Assembly: GCA_016196885.1 (NCBI GenBank)
Contig: JACPWU010000056.1
Location: 1 to 32,000 of the forward strand
DNA length: 32,000 nt
Direction of reading: 5' to 3'
Source: Chlamydiota bacterium
Lineage (GTDB): Bacteria; Auribacterota; JACPWU01
Part shown: positions 10,343 through 15,002 of the stretch, piece after piece
Layout of the letters: the number at the start of each line of letters is the position of its first letter
How positions within the stretch are numbered: position 1 is the stretch's first letter
Made by a program: the position numbers and the translations under genes
Notes under the pieces: generated by a model
What the model saw: only the letters and a program-made list of their open reading frames with translations
Database searches by the model: none
Told to the model about the DNA's origin: nothing

Positions 10343-10428
10343 CAGAATTCAGAAGTCAGAATCCAGAATTTAGAATAAATACAACTCCTTATTGTTCTGA
10401 ATTCTGACTACTGGCTTCTGAATTCTAA
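10343..10428. repeat. 86-nt heptamer-armed hairpin element (CAGAATT units), copy upstream of ruvC
   Basis: CAGAATT CAGAAGT CAGAATC CAGAATT TAGAATA, a loop, then GTTCTGA ATTCTGA CTACTGG CTTCTGA ATTCTAA. The outer 12 bp AGAATTCAGAAG/CTTCTGAATTCT are perfectly complementary. Confidence 0.85.
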
Positions 10429-10438
10429 ACTAAAAACC

Positions 10439-10927
10439 ATGCGCATTTTAGGAATTGATCCTGGCAGTCTTAAAACAGGTTTTGGAGTGATCGAAGTTTT
10501 GCGTGGGTCTTTCAAGCTTGTGGATTGTGGGTATATTTCAAATTCTTCCAAATCGCCTTTGCCTCGGCGTTTTTTAAAAATTTTTAGTGAGCTTAATAAC
10601 GTTATTGACCGATCTTCTCCCGATTGTGCTGCTATTGAAACGCTTTTCTACTTTAAAAATCCTCGAACTGCTTTTAAACTAGGGGAGGCGCGTGGGGTTG
10701 CTGTTTTAGCAGCGGCTCACCATCAATTAGAGATTCATGAATATGAGCCTCGTAGAATCAAACAGGCTGTGATTGGCTTTGGTTCTGCCCATAAGTTTCA
10801 AATAAAAAAAATGGTTTCATCGTTACTCGGTTTAAAAACAATTGAAGGGCCTGAAGATGTTACGGATGCTTTGGCGGTGGCGATTTGTCATGCGCATCAT
10901 TTAAAGGCAGAAGTCAGAAGACAGTAG
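10439..10927 (+). CDS. ruvC: Holliday junction resolvase RuvC
   Basis: MRILGIDPGSLKTGFGVIE N-terminus; 162 aa; typical RuvC length and motifs. Confidence 0.9.
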   Translation: MRILGIDPGSLKTGFGVIEVLRGSFKLVDCGYISNSSKSPLPRRFLKIFSELNNVIDRSSPDCAAIETLFYFKNPRTAFKLGEARGVAVLAAAHHQLEIHEYEPRRIKQAVIGFGSAHKFQIKKMVSSLLGLKTIEGPEDVTDALAVAICHAHHLKAEVRRQ

Positions 10928-10992
10928 TCAGAATTCAGAATGATAAGGAATTGTATTTATTCCGAATTCTGTATTCTGACTTCTGAATTCTA
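10907..10992. repeat. 86-nt heptamer-armed hairpin element, inverted copy downstream of (and overlapping) the ruvC 3' end
   Basis: The reverse complement of 10343-10428 matches 10907-10992 at 75 of 86 positions in an ungapped hand alignment. Confidence 0.85.
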
Positions 10993-11001
10993 GGGAGTAA
11001 A

Positions 11002-11643: not shown

Positions 11644-12663
11644 ATGAGCCAAGAACGAATTTTTACAGAAAGCTTGAACGAAGATCCGCAATTCTATGTT
11701 TCTTTGCGACCGAATTTAATGAAGGAGTTTATCGGCCAGGAGAAACTCAAGGAGCGTTTGGAAGTGTTTATGAAGGCGGCCATCACGCGAAAAGAACCGC
11801 TAGAACATATTCTTCTTTCAGGGCCACCCGGATTGGGGAAGACGACTTTGTCGTACATTATTGCCCAAGAAATGGGGGCCAATATTAAGGTGACTTCGGG
11901 TCCTGTGATTGAACGGCCAGGCGACTTGGCAGGGCTTCTGACAAATTTAGAAGAGGGGGATGTGCTTTTCATTGATGAGATTCATCGCCTCAATCACATG
12001 GTTGAAGAATATTTGTACCCGGCCATGGAGGATTTTCTTCTTGATATCATGATTGACAAGGGACCCAGCGCGCGGTCTGTGAGGTTGAATCTGAAAAAAT
12101 TTACATTGGTGGGAGCGACGACCCGAAGTGGCCTTCTTTCATCTCCCTTGCGTTCCCGGTTTGGCATGATGAGCCGGCTCGATTTTTATTCCGTGGAGGA
12201 GCTTAAACATATTGTCTTGAGGTCTGCAAATATTTTGAATGTCGAAATCAGCGACGACGGGGCCTTAGAAATTGCTCGGAGGTCTCGAGGAACTCCGAGA
12301 ATTACCAATTGTCTTTTGAGACGTGTGCGTGATTTTGCCCAGGTGAAGGCGGATGGGGTTATCACCGTAAAGGTCGCAGATCAGGCTTTGAAAATGTTGG
12401 AGGTGGATGAGAAGGGGTTGGATGAGATGGACCGTAAAATTATTGAGACCATTGCCTTAAAATTTGCGGGGGGTCCTGTTGGAATTAACACGCTCTCAGC
12501 CGCCTTATCCGAAGAAACAGACACCTTGGAAGAGGTGTATGAGCCCTACTTGATTCAGCAAGGCTATATCAAACGCACCCCCAGTGGCCGAAAGGTTACG
12601 AGATTGGCGTATGAACATTTTAAGCTTCAGACTCCTGTGTTAGAACAAGAAGAATTACTGTAA
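11644..12663 (+). CDS. ruvB: Holliday junction DNA helicase RuvB
   Basis: Walker [10 protein letters not shown] and Walker B LFIDEIH, with RuvB-wide similarity. I prefer ATG 11644 (MSQERIF) over the GTG at 11611, which lies in a repeat. Confidence 0.9.
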
Positions 12664-12743
12664 GTGAAATGAAAAGTGAAAAATGAAAAGTGAAAAATTT
12701 TAAAAGCAGTAACATTTTTCATTCTTCACTCTTCACTTTTCAT
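12664..12743. repeat. Heptamer-armed hairpin (GTGAAAA/GAAAAGT units) after ruvB
   Basis: Left arm ATGAAAAGTGAAAAATGAAAAGTGAAAAA against the reverse complement of right arm 12715-12743 (ATGAAAAGTGAAGAGTGAAGAATGAAAAA): 25 of 29 match by hand. Confidence 0.8.
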
Positions 12744-13907
12744 TGCCTTTATTTCCTCTCAGTTTTATTTCTTTTTCTGGCCCCCATTTCTCTTTATTCG
12801 ATGGGTTTAAAACCTGCTCGTTTTTACCGGGAAATCAGAGTTTTGGTGTTTGAATCGAGGCAGGCTGTATCATTGTATAGCCCTAAACTTTATTTGTGCG
12901 ATGCCCAGTGGAATAACCTCTATCAGGTGGGCCCCCACTTAATCTTTTCTCCCTGGGGTCGAAGAGGTCTTTGGGTCAATGAGAAGATGATTCGCGCAGA
13001 TGGGCTCTATTTTCAATCGGATCAAAATATTTTTCGTGTTCAAGATAAGATTTTTAGAGGGAAAATGATTATTCGAAACCACCAAGGAGTCTTGCAAGTG
13101 ATTAATCAACTTCCCTTGGAAGAATATTTGAAAAGCGTGGTTGCCTCTGAAATAGGCCCGGGCGCTCCGCGAGAGGCTCTCAAGGCTCAAGCGGTCATCG
13201 CTCGTTCTTTTGCCGTTTGGCACATGAGAGAACATTATGATCAGGATTACGATATGGGACTCCCTGAGCATGCCCAGGCCTATGAGGGCAAGAGTGCCGA
13301 AAATTCACTTTCGGATGAGGCGGTTGAAGAAACAAAAGATGTCATTTTGATTCGTCACGGAAAACCTTTCCCAACTTTTTTTCACACCTGCTGTGGAGGA
13401 TGGACGGTAGAGGCCCAAGAGGTTTGGCCCAATATTTCGACGGAGGTGCCCTCGGGCGTTAAATGTTCTGGGTGTCTTGAAGGGAATCCCATCCAGTGGA
13501 AATATTCCATAGAACTCTGTGAATTTAGAAACAAACTTAATGTAAATGGATATCAAATCCCTCCAGAGTTTCAAATGATTGTTTACAGAGATGAGGAGAC
13601 CCAAAGGGTGAAGTTTTTGAAGGTAGGAGGCTTGCTGATTCCTGCTGCTAAATTTAGAAACATGTTAGGACCTGCTTCTTTGAAAAGTACATTTTTTAAA
13701 GCTGTTCTTGGAAAAAAATATCTAGAGTTTAAAGGCCGAGGATGGGGTCATGGGGTCGGGCTTTGCCAAAAAGGGGCCATTCAACTTGCAAAGGATGGGA
13801 TGTCTTATCGAAAAATTTTGAAATATTATTATCCGGCGAGTCAATGCGGAAAAGGCAGTTCTAAGAATTTAAAACTTAAAATTAAAAAACTGTCTTTTTA
13901 TGAATGA
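12690..13907 (+). CDS. SpoIID/LytB-domain protein (peptidoglycan lytic enzyme / amidase enhancer family)
   Basis: LEEYLKSVVASEIG..PREALKAQAVIARSFA motif with a hydrophobic N-terminal segment. The start is uncertain because GTG 12690 and the first ~18 codons lie inside the hairpin repeat. Confidence 0.75.
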   Translation: MKNFKSSNIFHSSLFTFHCLYFLSVLFLFLAPISLYSMGLKPARFYREIRVLVFESRQAVSLYSPKLYLCDAQWNNLYQVGPHLIFSPWGRRGLWVNEKMIRADGLYFQSDQNIFRVQDKIFRGKMIIRNHQGVLQVINQLPLEEYLKSVVASEIGPGAPREALKAQAVIARSFAVWHMREHYDQDYDMGLPEHAQAYEGKSAENSLSDEAVEETKDVILIRHGKPFPTFFHTCCGGWTVEAQEVWPNISTEVPSGVKCSGCLEGNPIQWKYSIELCEFRNKLNVNGYQIPPEFQMIVYRDEETQRVKFLKVGGLLIPAAKFRNMLGPASLKSTFFKAVLGKKYLEFKGRGWGHGVGLCQKGAIQLAKDGMSYRKILKYYYPASQCGKGSSKNLKLKIKKLSFYE

Positions 13908-14943
13908 ATACGATTATTATTTGCCTAAAAATCTCATTGCTCAAACACCGAGTTCTGAGCGTAGCGCTTCCCGGTTGTTGATTTATTCAAAGGACGAGAG
14001 AAAGATAGAACATAGGGCTTTTTATGAAATTGAGGAGATATTTCAGAAGGGTGATTGTGTGGTTGTTAACGATTCTAAAGTCATTTCTGCTAGACTTTGG
14101 GGGCAAAAAACAAAAACAGGGAAAGCGGTAGAATTTCTTTGGCTCGAGGAGATAAAATCAGGGATCTGGTGCGGTCTTTTAAGGGGTAAAAATAAATTAG
14201 GAGGTGAATTTGATTTTGGCGCAAGGCAGATAAAAGGAAGGCTCCTTTCAAAAAACGAGGATGGAACAACGACGTTGGAAGTGACGCCTCCTGTTTCAGC
14301 CCTTTCATTTTTATCTGAGCATGGTGTGATGCCTCTGCCCCCTTATATTGCACGAGAGAAAGATAAAAAAAATTTAAAAGATCAGGATAGATATCAAACG
14401 GTTTATGCGAAATTTTTAGGATCCGTGGCTGCGCCCACCGCCGGGTTGCATTTTGATGCGCCTCTTATTGAGAAATTAAAGGGAAAGGGAGTTGAATTCA
14501 TTTCTGTGACTTTGCATGTGGGGTTGGGGACTTTTCAGCCGTTAAAGGCAGATTGCTTGGAAAAAGGAGAACTCCACTCGGAAAATTTTGAGATTCTTGA
14601 GGAAAACGCGAGAAAAATTAATCAAGCGCTTCAAGAAAAACGCAGACTCATTGTCATAGGCACAACAACAGCTCGAGTGCTTGAGTCTGCTGCGACTGAA
14701 GATGGGAGTGCCCTTAGAGCAGGAAAAGGCGTGACAAAACTTTTTATTCGTCCGCCCTATCGGTTTAAAATGATCAAAAACCTTTTGACTAATTTTCATC
14801 TGCCGAAATCTTCTTTGTTCATGCTAGTCGCGGCTTTGATTGGAAGGGAAAAGGTTCTGGAAATTTATCAGAAGGCAATCGAAGAAAAGTATCGGTTTTA
14901 TAGTTATGGAGACGCGATGTTGATTTTAAATAACAAGTTTTGA
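13900..14943 (+). CDS. queA: S-adenosylmethionine:tRNA ribosyltransferase-isomerase
   Basis: YDYYLPKNLIAQTPSSERSASRLL N-terminus and LHVGLGTFQP; 347 aa; overlaps the spoIID-like stop by 8 nt. Confidence 0.9.
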   Translation: MNEYDYYLPKNLIAQTPSSERSASRLLIYSKDERKIEHRAFYEIEEIFQKGDCVVVNDSKVISARLWGQKTKTGKAVEFLWLEEIKSGIWCGLLRGKNKLGGEFDFGARQIKGRLLSKNEDGTTTLEVTPPVSALSFLSEHGVMPLPPYIAREKDKKNLKDQDRYQTVYAKFLGSVAAPTAGLHFDAPLIEKLKGKGVEFISVTLHVGLGTFQPLKADCLEKGELHSENFEILEENARKINQALQEKRRLIVIGTTTARVLESAATEDGSALRAGKGVTKLFIRPPYRFKMIKNLLTNFHLPKSSLFMLVAALIGREKVLEIYQKAIEEKYRFYSYGDAMLILNNKF

Positions 14944-15002
14944 ATTTTGAGTTTTGAATTTTTGGTTTTAAAACTCAAAACCAAAAATCTAAAATTCAAA
15001 AC
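14942..15002. repeat. Heptamer-armed hairpin (TGAnTTT units) after queA
   Basis: TGAATTT TGAGTTT TGAATTT TTGGTTT followed by CAAAACC AAAAATC TAAAATT CAAAACT. TTTTTGGTTTT pairs with AAAACCAAAAA. Confidence 0.75.

Follow-up and report, generated by a model that had tools for sequence, protein, structure and literature searches.

Heptad hairpins and arrays in the spacers of a 32-kb window

The window, by which we mean the whole 32-kb stretch of DNA analyzed, comes from an uncultured, Auribacterota-like ("Chlamydiae bacterium") MAG and carries a 5S rRNA gene, an ORF of 2167 aa, a gene series including yebC, ruvC, ruvA, ruvB, spoIID, queA, and tgt, as well as ribH, accB, accC, a PfkB kinase gene, and a tRNA-Gly gene. 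A first-pass annotation had claimed that hairpins built from 7-nt units occupy the gene boundaries here, and on this claim TRF arrays, an inverted-repeat scan, and RNAfold z-scores agree. The elements are as follows (approach in brackets):

673..742, + strand: hairpin after 5S rRNA (TRF, 673-697; folding)
2133..2215, + strand: E4, heptad hairpin in the 2167-aa ORF (TRF, inverted-repeat scan, folding, homologues)
2599..2647, + strand: AAATCAA x7 array in the 2167-aa ORF (TRF; no inverted partner)
10343..10428, + strand: E1, heptad hairpin in the yebC/ruvC spacer (TRF, inverted-repeat scan, folding)
10904..10992, - strand: E2, heptad hairpin in the ruvC/ruvA spacer (alignment to E1, TRF, folding)
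11598..11635, + strand: tandem 8-nt array AGTGCTTr x4 at the ruvA/ruvB junction (TRF, period 8, 4 copies)
12661..12751, + strand: E5, heptad hairpin of GAAAAGT/GAAAAAT units (TRF, inverted-repeat scan, folding)
13866..13890, + strand: weak TTAAAAC-type array at the spoIID 3' end (TRF score 31, period 6-7, 2.9 copies)
14936..15008, + strand: E6, heptad hairpin of TTTTGAr units (TRF, inverted-repeat scan, folding)
20846..20869, + strand: AACTAAG x3.4 array after ribH, tandem only (TRF)
24573..24648, + strand: E3, accB/accC spacer (TRF, alignment to E1, folding)
26058..26083, + strand: TGGATGn x3.7 array after accC, tandem only (TRF)
30708..30745, + strand: TCGGATT-type array in the spacer between the PfkB kinase gene and tRNA-Gly (TRF, sequence)

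The period-7 hairpin architecture is genuine and greatly exceeds chance expectation. TRF identified 17 period-7 clusters in the window, compared to which 100 order-3 Markov simulations gave a mean of 0.86 and a maximum of 4. Except for period 8 (5 versus 1.0 expected), counts at other periods were near expectation. Eleven of these 17 arrays are entirely or almost entirely intergenic and a further two span a stop codon, in a window of which 6% is intergenic. Autocorrelation of the intergenic DNA peaked at lag 7 (z = 7.6), followed by lag 14 (z = 3.8), with all remaining lags at z <= 3. Inverted pairs account for 12 of the 17 arrays, the remainder being single, and the arrays make up six or seven stem-loops of about -20 to -40 kcal/mol. 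More specifically, the inverted-repeat scan paired arrays at 10344-10426, 10909-10991, 12661-12751, and 14936-15008, with arms of 32-42 nt that are 81-84% complementary. Loops between inverted arrays measure 7-25 nt, the units often alternate between two variants to yield a 14-nt super-period, and intercistronic hairpins begin at the stop codon and reach to within a few bases of the next start codon. Leaving aside the 5S spacer, six hairpins were compared with shuffled controls: five reached z = -4.1 to -10, and the accB/accC hairpin was weak (z = -1.2). Period-7 hairpins occur at 12 per 100 kb in the source lineage versus 1.2 per 100 kb in unrelated RuvB/RuvC loci totalling 979 kb, and the G-richer arm is 5' in 19 of 26 hairpins (p = 0.03).

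Three copies of one element and other spacer hairpins

Most other hairpins in the window carry units seen at only one locus, but E1, E2 (inverted), and E3 form a single family, so the earlier description of a different unit at each locus fails for these three. E1, comprising (CAGAAnT)x5, a 13-nt loop, and (nTTCTGA)x5, spans from 3 nt past the yebC stop to 11 nt short of the ruvC ATG (TRF period-7 arrays, 10339-10376 and 10395-10426); it folds at -39.6 kcal/mol as RNA (z = -10) and at -20.8 kcal/mol as DNA (z = -7.1). E2 (TRF arrays, 10904-10940 and 10959-10991; -31.9 kcal/mol, z = -5.8) is 89% identical to the reverse complement of E1 over an 83-nt ungapped alignment, loop included; the two thus represent a single element of ~85 nt on either side of ruvC. 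The ruvC stop (10925-10927) lies inside the 5' arm of E2, the RuvC C terminus is extended by five array-encoded residues, and a GGGAG Shine-Dalgarno motif stands immediately 3' of the element. E3 (TRF arrays, 24575-24589 and 24610-24647) lies 14 kb away and is a third, diverged copy of E1 in the same orientation and with a related loop. Five TTCTGnC-type units, three of which are identical, are present in its 3' arm, against only about two units in its 5' arm; three perfect additional TCTGACT units are confined to one arm, and E3 folds poorly (-13.6 kcal/mol, z = -1.2). At least one unit family (CAGAAnT/TTCTGA) is also present as dispersed copies.

E5 (TRF arrays, 12662-12698 and 12713-12744; -26.6 kcal/mol, z = -5.8) has its base at the ruvB stop codon, and the spoIID GTG start (12690) and first ~20 codons fall within the end of its 5' arm, its loop, and its 3' arm; this start is supported by the N terminus, MKNF.., which agrees with MKNY.. 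of the L002 orthologue. For E6 (TRF arrays, 14936-14962 and 14969-15008; -20.9 kcal/mol, z = -4.1), the first unit contains the queA stop (14941-14943), and tgt begins with an ATG at 15014. The 8-nt array at the ruvA/ruvB junction (TRF span, 11602-11633) contains the ruvA stop and has no convincing inverted arm. The array at the spoIID 3' end (TRF span, 13869-13887) is marginal taken alone, and that between the PfkB kinase gene and tRNA-Gly has 2.1 perfect copies by TRF at 30708-22, with more degenerate units visible. An array proposed after tRNA-Gly (about 30825-30870) was too weak for TRF.

An in-frame hairpin inside a giant ORF

Placement at gene boundaries, as initially described, applies to most arrays but not to the hairpin at 2134-2215 (E4) or the array at 2599-2647, both of which lie inside the coding region. 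E4, absent from the first-pass list and found by the inverted-repeat scan, consists of AGTTnGA x4 / AACTTCC x4 units in frame, encodes the peptide ..LEVESSKLEE..TSNFQPLTSN.., and folds at -30.3 kcal/mol (z = -6.6). The hairpin is retained in homologues at one homologous position of a gene family. Of 31 stem positions, 26 are paired in the window and 25 in L112, even though the arms have diverged between the two genomes at 9 and 11 positions; seven of these changes are double compensatory. When arms of one genome are matched with those of the other, only 20-21 of the 31 positions can pair. The 5'-arm peptide SSKLE is kept in L112, whereas the 3'-arm peptide is changed. These compensatory changes represent a small number of independent events that unit homogenisation has multiplied, and templated correction without selection could be their source. 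The AAATCAA array is likewise found at the homologous place in L112 (10599-10648). In a relative, about four units have been added to a paralogous copy, whose ORF is frameshifted.

Hairpins at the same junctions in relatives

In syntenic relatives, we observed hairpins with differing units at the yebC/ruvC junction (window, L106, L108, and L002), the ruvC/ruvA junction (window, L106, and L002), and the queA/tgt junction (window, L107, and L108). RuvC identity among the genomes keeping junction hairpins is only 63-78%, and the orthologous-junction hairpins of L106, L108, and L002 have a related core, nnCAGTC. Hairpins are missing at the matching junctions in L110 and partly in L107, indicating that they are dispensable.

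Precedents in other bacteria

The first-pass annotation took the element class to be undescribed, but precedents exist in filamentous cyanobacteria (PMC2670836), Geobacter metallireducens (PMC2700814), and Xanthomonas (PMC4692102). Spacers of filamentous cyanobacteria contain 7-bp STRR hairpins, for which roles in transcript stability, translational coupling, or termination have been suggested; like the window elements, they are hairpin-capable tandem 7-bp units between co-transcribed genes (PMC2670836). As cited in PMC4679880 and PMC4692102, heptamers are the commonest long simple repeats in bacteria, an excess for which slippage was proposed (Mrazek 2007). The E6 unit TTTTGAA is among the listed heptamers of Nostoc PCC 7120 (bioRxiv 10.1101/2022.06.06.494920). 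By BLAST, the E1 CAGAAnT/TTCTGA array matched Nostocales plasmids only (all 24 hits), and on Nostoc plasmid L113 such a hairpin lies immediately 3' of a stop codon. The hosts differ (cyanobacteria versus an uncultured PVC-group MAG), as does density, with 17 arrays and 6-7 hairpins per 32 kb in the window versus 3 arrays per 50 kb of the Nostoc plasmid, where the hairpin scan found one period-7 hairpin at a strict setting and two at a looser one. STRR families reportedly comprise few heptamers repeated genome-wide, whereas most window units occur at one locus.

In G. metallireducens, paired "global regulator binding sites" of classes 1-3 (Aklujkar 2009, PMC2700814; supplement S9) are, as in the window, opposite-strand pairs of tandem units between a gene 3' end and the next 5' end. 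Their units are 7, 8, or 9 nt long and the paired sites 75-115 nt apart, e.g., at proB/proA and moaA/mosC (PMC2700814). Class 3, with five heptamers of consensus MTYCTGA (PMC2700814), has the unit also found in the window (Gmet_I303A, ATTCTGAATTCTGACTCCTGGTTTCTGAATTCT; E1 3' arm, GTTCTGAATTCTGACTACTGGCTTCTGAATTCT); this common TTCTGA unit may reflect either homology or convergence. Each Geobacter class is multi-copy with a single consensus (8-24 pairs), whereas the window has mostly locus-own units, and the Geobacter sites were interpreted as putative protein-binding DNA, whereas the window elements were tested by folding.

Xanthomonas genomes each have 70-75 convergent inverted pairs of GGGAATC arrays (Rehm 2015, PMC4692102), and the single or inverted-pair type is preserved across species while lengths vary (PMC4692102). 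These are intergenic heptamer arrays, as in the window, and their G-rich array comes first, a polarity similar to ours. In contrast, Xanthomonas uses one G-rich, G-quadruplex-capable unit, whereas the window has varied, AT-rich units that lack G-tracts.

REP/REPIN elements resemble the window hairpins in being imperfect spacer palindromes at gene 3' ends and inside operons. REPs are GC-rich and conserved in sequence, with a GTAG-type end and no internal tandem periodicity, and mRNA stabilisation is among the roles proposed for REP/REPIN. The heptad hairpins lack REP hallmarks and do not flank the RayT-like gene. The window also holds that gene together with classical REPIN-like doublets (GTAGTCGCCC...GGGCGACTAC). 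Rickettsia palindromic elements (RPE) are said to form dispersed families of 100-150 bp, in frame inside genes; like E4, they are palindromes tolerated in protein-coding genes, but they are scattered across genes and lack tandem heptad arms, whereas E4 occupies one homologous position in a gene family.

DISCUSSION

We interpret these elements, with a probability of roughly 60%, as slippage-grown, STRR-like stem-loops that operon transcripts carry between cistrons or at their 3' ends, with a putative function. Replication slippage would gain or lose whole 7-nt units, and arm complementarity may be kept through a fold-back intermediate in which one arm templates correction of the other, by selection for the stem, or by both. 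Units would then change together in both arms of a locus, while loci drift apart. The slippage-driven growth initially proposed fits the one-arm units of E3, the RuvC extension, and the paralogue gain of about four units, but E1, E2, and E3, as copies of one element, are not explained by local slippage. Units specific to each locus argue against a sequence-specific reader. Since the genes are co-directional and closely spaced, with hairpins filling the spacers, it is almost certain that operon mRNAs include the operon-internal hairpins. In these mRNAs, they would fold into long imperfect stems, intercistronic or at 3' ends, that may shield mRNA from 3' exonucleases, provide cleavage sites for a double-strand-specific RNase, or mask the start codon downstream for as long as the ribosome upstream has not opened the stem. 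Folding of 19 elements in sense versus antisense gave sums of -501 versus -469 kcal/mol, with individual cases mixed; given no consistent sense-strand advantage, selection at the RNA level is not demonstrated.

That lack of strand asymmetry would also suit a functionless by-product of lineage-specific mutational bias, a possible but doubtful account whereby heptamer slippage and fold-back templated repair build and homogenise palindromic arrays outside coding constraint. Arrays are indeed concentrated in spacers yet tolerated in the low-complexity part of the giant ORF, their hairpins come and go among close relatives, the E3 stem is degraded by one-arm expansion, and unit expansion frameshifted a paralogue. 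Neutrality does not readily explain why 12 of 17 arrays are paired rather than single, why same-junction hairpins persist where RuvC is so diverged, why E4 pairing is maintained at the expense of amino-acid changes, or why the 5S copy has exact terminator form.

The E1/E2/E3 copies, in opposite orientations and up to 14 kb apart, would be expected of selfish non-autonomous foldback or MITE-like elements, copied by a trans-acting enzyme (e.g., the neighboring RayT-like Y1 transposase) and persisting because spacer stem-loops do little harm. The E1 unit, arm length, and spacing recur in G. metallireducens sites Gmet_I301-308 and in the Nostocales plasmids (24/24 BLAST hits), 13 full CAGAA..TTCTG hairpins occur in IMG/VR contigs, E4 sits in frame within an ORF, and 0.9 kb upstream of E1 is the RayT-like gene, itself flanked by inverted repeats containing tandem 8-mers. 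We nevertheless consider this origin unlikely. Most hairpins have units unique within the window, for which plasmid BLAST returned no match; no target-site duplication is visible in the sequence; and related cores at orthologous junctions point to long residence, not repeated insertion. Moreover, RayT-like genes are flanked in four phyla by GGGGACGGAG-type repeats, not heptad hairpins, and loci picked for this gene showed no clear enrichment (1 hairpin in 31 kb). A heptamer common to two families may be coincidence (about 14/4^7 per pair, over many pairs).

Only the 5S hairpin looks like an intrinsic terminator. Its 5' arm is GGTGnTT x4, its 3' arm a degenerate complement, a T-run follows at 728-742 (UUUUUUAUUUUUAUU), and its RNA folds at -28.5 kcal/mol (z = -5.9); it is probably the rRNA operon terminator. 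The first-pass statement that most elements lack a T-run holds: none follows the operon-internal hairpins, and none of these qualified in a terminator-pattern scan. The operon-internal hairpins would not serve as classical intrinsic terminators. That they are unusual Rho-independent terminators without a U-tract is improbable, even though stable stems lie directly 3' of stop codons, the 5S copy has the canonical shape, and in a relative the L106 hairpin at 14941-15044 lies between convergent genes: the ruvC-ruvA-ruvB-type neighbors they separate are only 0-100 nt apart, the E5 stem contains the start codon of the next gene, and mismatched 30-35-nt arms far exceed typical terminator stems. For G. 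metallireducens, the sites were hypothesized to be bound as double-stranded DNA by a nucleoid-associated protein or global regulator such as IHF/HU (PMC2700814). Inverted pairs of tandem units do resemble multi-site operators, but this reading is very improbable here, as locus-to-locus unit differences misfit a single sequence-specific protein and the sites follow stop codons within operons rather than promoters, promoter-like matches being at chance level.

What is new is the very high density of such hairpins in an Auribacterota-like MAG, together with the presence in its relatives of hairpins at the same junctions whose units have turned over.

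Period-7 arrays and hairpins in the window

TRF analysis revealed 17 period-7 array clusters in the window, against 0.86 on average and at most 4 in 100 order-3 Markov simulations; no other period was outstanding, with a mild excess at period 8 only (5 versus 1.0). Eleven of the 17 arrays are wholly or nearly intergenic and two more straddle a stop codon, in a window of which spacers make up 6%. Many arrays consist of two alternating unit variants, and TRF also gave perfect 14-nt periods. The first-pass annotation had described heptad hairpins, that is, stem-loops with arms of tandem 7-nt units, and this architecture was borne out, with TRF arrays at almost every coordinate that it listed. 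The period-7 autocorrelation that it had proposed as a check gave a clear excess in the window spacers at lag 7 (z = 7.6) and a second peak at lag 14 (z = 3.8). An inverted-repeat scan paired the arrays at 10344-10426, 10909-10991, 12661-12751, and 14936-15008, and yielded an extra hairpin (2134-2215) absent from the annotation. Folding against controls likewise set the main hairpins apart (as RNA, -21 to -40 kcal/mol; z -4.1 to -10), the exception being the accB-accC hairpin, with a weak RNA fold (z = -1.2). As single-stranded DNA, the yebC-ruvC hairpin folds at -20.8 kcal/mol (z = -7.1). An Rfam search gave no family over the heptad-hairpin regions. Because array counts, autocorrelation, and folding z-scores lie far from the Markov and shuffle controls, AT-rich composition alone is ruled out as the cause, and the observation is real and statistically solid.

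The genes yebC, ruvC, ruvA, ruvB, spoIID, queA, tgt, and others lie closely spaced on the plus strand, and a hairpin fills each spacer concerned. The hairpins referred to by handle are as follows.

Hairpins of the window and their position relative to genes
E1, 10343-10428 (86 nt), yebC-ruvC spacer; yebC stop at 10338-10340, ruvC ATG at 10439
E2, 89 nt, ruvC-ruvA junction; ruvC stop (10925-10927) within the 5' arm, GGGAG motif and ruvA ATG after the 3' arm
E3, 76 nt, accB-accC junction
E4, 2134-2215, within the reading frame of a giant gene
E5, ruvB-spoIID junction; ruvB stop at the stem base, first possible spoIID start (GTG 12690) in the last 5' unit
E6, queA-tgt junction; queA stop in the first unit, tgt ATG 5 nt beyond the stem

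The N terminus of SpoIID read from GTG 12690 (MKNF..) agrees with that of the orthologue at locus L002 of a relative (MKNY..), and therefore the loop and 3' arm of E5 encode its first ~20 residues. Placement at gene boundaries holds for most arrays but not for E4 or for an AAATCAA x7 array (2599-2647), both of which lie in frame inside a 2,167-aa open reading frame (ORF) and are kept in its homologues.

Distribution in relatives and beyond

The window RuvB is 83% identical to those of a Candidatus Auribacterota metagenome-assembled genome (MAG) and of one further MAG. The nearest relatives fall in the PVC group, to which the phylum Auribacterota belongs, and are MAGs labelled Candidatus Auribacterota or "Chlamydiae bacterium"; the host is not a heterocystous or filamentous cyanobacterium. 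Syntenic comparison covered loci from five relatives with RuvC 63-78% identical, and hairpins of the same design, built from other units, were found at the same junctions.

Hairpin units at loci of relatives
yebC-ruvC: nnCAGTC/GACTGnn in L106, L108, and L002
ruvC-ruvA: ACCAAGC/TTTGGAA in L106; TTCGTAn in L002
ruvA-ruvB: AGTTTAC in L002
queA-tgt: TAGCTTTT in L107; nnCTGTn in L108
ribH-nusB: AGTCACG in L107
convergent gene pair: CGGATTG in L106

One relative (L110) carries no hairpins at these junctions. With one detector, period-7 hairpin density was 12 per 100 kb in the clade versus 1.2 per 100 kb in 979 kb of unrelated loci. A metagenome scan with a RuvC alignment, whose search patterns were too universal, returned only relatives at <=50% identity, and those loci served as controls. 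Confinement to the window, which would have told against the elements, is not what we see: clade loci carry them, and so do some unrelated loci. More specifically, control loci with hairpins of locus-specific 7-9-nt units comprise L073 (2120-2212 and 2906-2969) and L075 (3813-3905 and 4599-4662), again at the ruvC-ruvA and ruvA-ruvB junctions; L070 (10517-10624, 12099-12177, 14422-14528, and 18584-18654), with periods 7, 8, and 9 in an organism of 66% G+C; L042; and L017, from a "Gammaproteobacteria" MAG. Such hairpins also occur in a Chlamydiota locus (L237) and an Elusimicrobiota locus (L238). In the latter, we noted a heptad hairpin of AGTCnTG units (2879-3046) and, at the contig end (1-115), a fourteen-unit array of alternating 8-mers, GCTCTTAG/GCTTTTAG. 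The G-richer arm is the 5' arm in 19 of 26 independent hairpins (p = 0.03, uncorrected).

Copies of one element around ruvC and accB

E1 aligns with the reverse complement of E2 without gaps over 83 nt, at 89% identity and with the loop included, and direct alignment reaches half that score. Thus, one element occurs on both sides of ruvC, its two copies oppositely oriented. A third copy, E3, has diverged but has a related loop. The earlier statement that the unit differs at each locus is accordingly corrected, since E1, E2, and E3 form one family; CAGAAnT, found three times, is the only recurring unit in the 32 kb.

These copies, together with a TTCTGA family that crosses phyla, are what favors selfish, foldback-like mobility as a rival explanation. 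As to the multiple near-identical copies expected of a MITE, E1 and E2 are 89% identical, E3 is diverged, and every other hairpin is single copy within the sequence examined. Inspection of the flanks of E1, E2, and E3 found no direct repeat that could be a target-site duplication.

Unit turnover and maintenance of pairing

Slippage had been suggested as the source of hairpin growth, and the idea stands, as several observations fit 7-nt steps. The 3' arm of E3 holds three identical TCTGACT units with no partners in the 5' arm; RuvC is five residues longer at its C terminus than L002 RuvC, the extra codons being array units; and at L112, a locus with homologues of the giant ORF, a paralogue of the in-ORF hairpin (4443-4557) has about four extra units, its ORF being split by a frameshift. 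The near-identical locus pairs L108/L109 and L110/L111, which are 99.99-100% identical overall, showed no length variation.

The in-ORF hairpin E4 has AGTTnGA/AACTTCC units in the window and AGCTCGA/CCTCGAG at the homologous position of L112. Pair counts, scripted in a fixed register, were 26 of 31 in the window and 25 of 31 in L112, although the arms differ at 9 and 11 positions; there are seven double compensatory changes, and arms cross-paired between the two loci give only 20-21 pairs of 31. The peptide of the 5' arm, SSKLE, is kept via synonymous changes, and that of the 3' arm changes from TSNFQPLTSN to TSSLEPRASN. Complementarity of the arms is therefore maintained. The means of maintenance are not indicated by these changes, because the independent events are few and spread by homogenisation. 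Sense and antisense folding are similar overall, with no consistent asymmetry, and therefore selection at the RNA level is not demonstrated. A purely neutral mutational product, another rival explanation, has the slippage-like steps and the lack of strand bias on one side and the pairing kept within a coding region on the other.

As to the giant gene itself (1829-8332), its 2,167-aa product has a signal-peptide-like N terminus and an internal Maf-like domain. Its counterparts in L112 lie at 4145-9683 and 10001-10909. Relatives have several paralogous N-terminal modules beside AceK-like genes, and in one paralogue the frameshift split lies exactly at the expanded heptad hairpin, where repeat-driven on/off switching is possible.

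Relation to described repeats

Bacterial heptamer repeats have been on record since 1990, and to our knowledge neither a function nor a mechanism is established. The first-pass annotation did not recall the hairpins as a described element class, and on this point it fails: they have been described under several names. In filamentous cyanobacteria, short tandemly repeated repetitive sequences (STRR), "usually made up of 7 bp repeats," form intergenic hairpins, e.g., at hupS-hupL, with suggested roles in transcript stability, translational coupling, and termination (PMC2670836). In Geobacter metallireducens, 24, 21, and 8 pairs of tandem 8-, 8/9-, and 7-nt units lie on opposite strands between genes and have been read as possible IHF/HU sites (PMC2700814), and in Xanthomonas there are 70-75 convergent inverted GGGAATC array pairs per genome, of a type kept between species (PMC4692102). 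Heptanucleotide repeats are reported to be the most abundant long simple repeats of most bacterial genomes, and polymerase slippage is proposed as the cause (PMC4679880, PMC4692102).

The window arrays share with STRR the 7-bp tandem unit (17 clusters where 0.86 were expected) and the intergenic, hairpin-capable placement often seen between cotranscribed genes (inverted pairs, z -4 to -10). STRR comprise few heptamers at very many genome loci; in the 32 kb examined here, only CAGAAnT recurs. Geobacter class 3 consists of about five tandem heptamers of consensus MTYCTGA (supplement S9), with opposite-strand sites 75-115 nt apart from the 3' end of one gene to the 5' end of the next; E1-E3 agree in spacing and position, with arms of (A/G/C)TTCTGA or CTTCTGA. 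The listed class 3 sequences are nearly those of the E1/E2 arms, with equal unit number, a comparison that covers the published arms. Because polarity, unit count, and variants (e.g., an inner ATTCCGA unit) match, the shared TTCTGA unit is suggestive, not proven, as a link; many families were compared, and coincidence is possible. In Xanthomonas, the G-rich-first arrangement matches the 5'-arm G bias found here, which is a lead only. The Geobacter interpretation has its counterpart in a third explanation of the heptad hairpins, namely, duplex protein-binding sites.

A BLAST search of E1 against 72,556 plasmids gave matches only in Nostocales (24 records), and one Nostoc plasmid (L113) carries the complete hairpin immediately past a stop codon. 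E4, E5, and one relative's hairpin gave no plasmid match by BLAST, possibly owing in part to the low-complexity filter. Among viral contigs, a pattern scan found at least 120 loci, 13 with full CAGAA..TTCTG hairpins.

STRR hairpins of cyanobacteria, paired sites of Geobacter, and inverted arrays of Xanthomonas are the same architecture, and the heptad hairpins described here are members of this known, poorly understood kind. New here are a host phylum in which density is exceptional, evidence that hairpins persist at orthologous sites while their units turn over in concert with pairing preserved, and the recognition that three separately named phenomena share one architecture.

RayT-like transposase and REPIN-like repeats

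The window also encodes a candidate mobility protein.

8418-9419, minus strand, RayT-like Y1 transposase gene (Pfam Y1_Tnp; element 8341-9488)

The protein scores 79.2 bits against the NCBIfam model "REP-associated tyrosine transposase" (REP_Tyr_transpos; cut-off 80), has a DnaA-C-like helix-turn-helix tail, and belongs to a family with >7,000 members about 334 aa in length. The gene lies between the copies of a perfect 29-bp inverted repeat, TAGGGGACGGAGTTAACTTATTAACTTAA, with tandem 8-mers within; the flanking motif TAGGGGACGGAG also flanks homologues in L236, L237, and L238. These homologues, in three other phyla (among them Chlamydiota, L237, and Elusimicrobiota, L238), have GGGGACGGAG...CTCCGTCCCC flanks, followed by tandem units and a TTGACA box. 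The gene is not at the corresponding place in L106. Adjoining the right inverted repeat of the element is a perfect 13-nt tandem duplication (9481-9506, CGTCCCCTAAAGA x2), and a similar CGTCCCCAAATACC repeat occupies the corresponding relative position in L237.

A tie between this transposase and the heptad hairpins was rejected, as its own conserved flanks differ from them and heptad hairpins were not significantly enriched at loci chosen for a RayT-like gene. REP/REPIN systems have a cognate RAYT gene flanked by the same repeat, whereas heptad hairpins do not flank the RayT-like gene; and REPs are GC-rich imperfect palindromes of conserved sequence with a GTAG-type end, whereas heptad hairpins are AT-rich, periodic, and varied. 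The GC-rich, GTAG-type feature is found in separate elements at 23300-23355 and 26103-26155. These are REPIN-like doublets of two short GC hairpins (GCCCC-ATTCAT-GGGGC type) within an outer inverted repeat, GTAGTCGCCC...GGGCGACTAC, and further doublets lie in L112 (92-180 and 1195-1256), with a variant in L106 (5930-6033). They are conserved in two clade genomes and form a family separate from the heptad hairpins. Occurrences of the 10-mer GTAGTCGCCC in unrelated loci L007, L008, and L025 are chance matches in coding-like context.

Expected transcription and termination

The heptad hairpins should be present in mRNAs, given their location within tightly spaced runs of genes read in one direction. 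That most hairpins lack a following T-run held for the operon-internal ones (scan from 9400 to 15200) but not for the 5S hairpin (673-727; -28.5 kcal/mol, z = -5.9), which is directly followed by UUUUUUAUUUUUAUU and, from its sequence, has the canonical terminator shape of a hairpin plus U-run. An intrinsic (Rho-independent) terminator has a short GC-rich stem and a 3-8-nt loop before a U-tract. The heptad hairpins of the scanned region do not fit this form: no U-tract follows, the terminator scan called none of them, and terminator-like and promoter-like matches there were at chance level. U-less terminators are a fourth rival explanation.

Three other features were noted. Directly downstream of the rRNA operon, an AbiEii-type nucleotidyltransferase toxin (754-1631) is in two overlapping ORFs (754-1020 and 1017-1631), the gene probably being frameshifted. 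After secDF and upstream of ribBA, a nonperiodic hairpin (about 18938-18968) with a perfect 13-bp stem, TATATCTTATTCT..AGAATAAGATATA, had no Rfam match. A 25-bp palindrome (26986-27041; 96% complementary) holds the phosphofructokinase ATG (27012) in its 6-nt loop, and therefore the first ~10 codons repeat the 5' leader in reverse complement; it could be a translational control stem.

Discussion

The structure, position, turnover, and conservation of the heptad hairpins are shown here. As the best-supported reading, we propose that they are STRR-like elements whose arms would grow and shrink by slippage in 7- or 14-nt steps, with fold-back templating and/or selection keeping the arms complementary. 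Upkeep of complementarity and slippage together would homogenise the units within a locus and let loci diverge.

Both their transcription and any functional role we infer. In mRNA, they could act as intercistronic stems that stabilise upstream segments or, alternatively, as cleavage sites for a double-strand RNase. They may also hide the start codon of the following gene pending arrival of the upstream ribosome, a form of masking for which E5 would be the clearest case.

In our study, such hairpins span the Auribacterota-like clade, Elusimicrobiota and Chlamydiota MAGs, several metagenome lineages, and a "Gammaproteobacteria" MAG, and the same class has appeared in scattered publications on Nostocales, Geobacter, and Xanthomonas (PMC2670836, PMC2700814, PMC4692102). 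We regard it as improbable, if worth stating, that all hairpins with 7-9-nt arm units are one cross-phylum class made or read by shared machinery that senses the 7-nt register and not the sequence. Candidates for such machinery would be a cold-shock/OB-fold protein, binding one heptamer per monomer and tuning stem opening, or a hairpin-specific nuclease/transposase, which might also spread families such as the TTCTGA element between phyla.

For annotators, heptad hairpins are to be expected at gene ends in such genomes, where gene ends and start codons can be miscalled, as the RuvC extension and the spoIID start within a stem illustrate. The window presents an unusually high heptamer density in an uncultured PVC lineage, at orthologous junctions and with pairing kept even in a coding region. 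Should the stems prove to be signals for intercistronic processing or coupling, operon regulation would have a widespread layer that has been overlooked; a purely mutational origin would make them a clear natural example of self-growing, self-homogenising palindromes.
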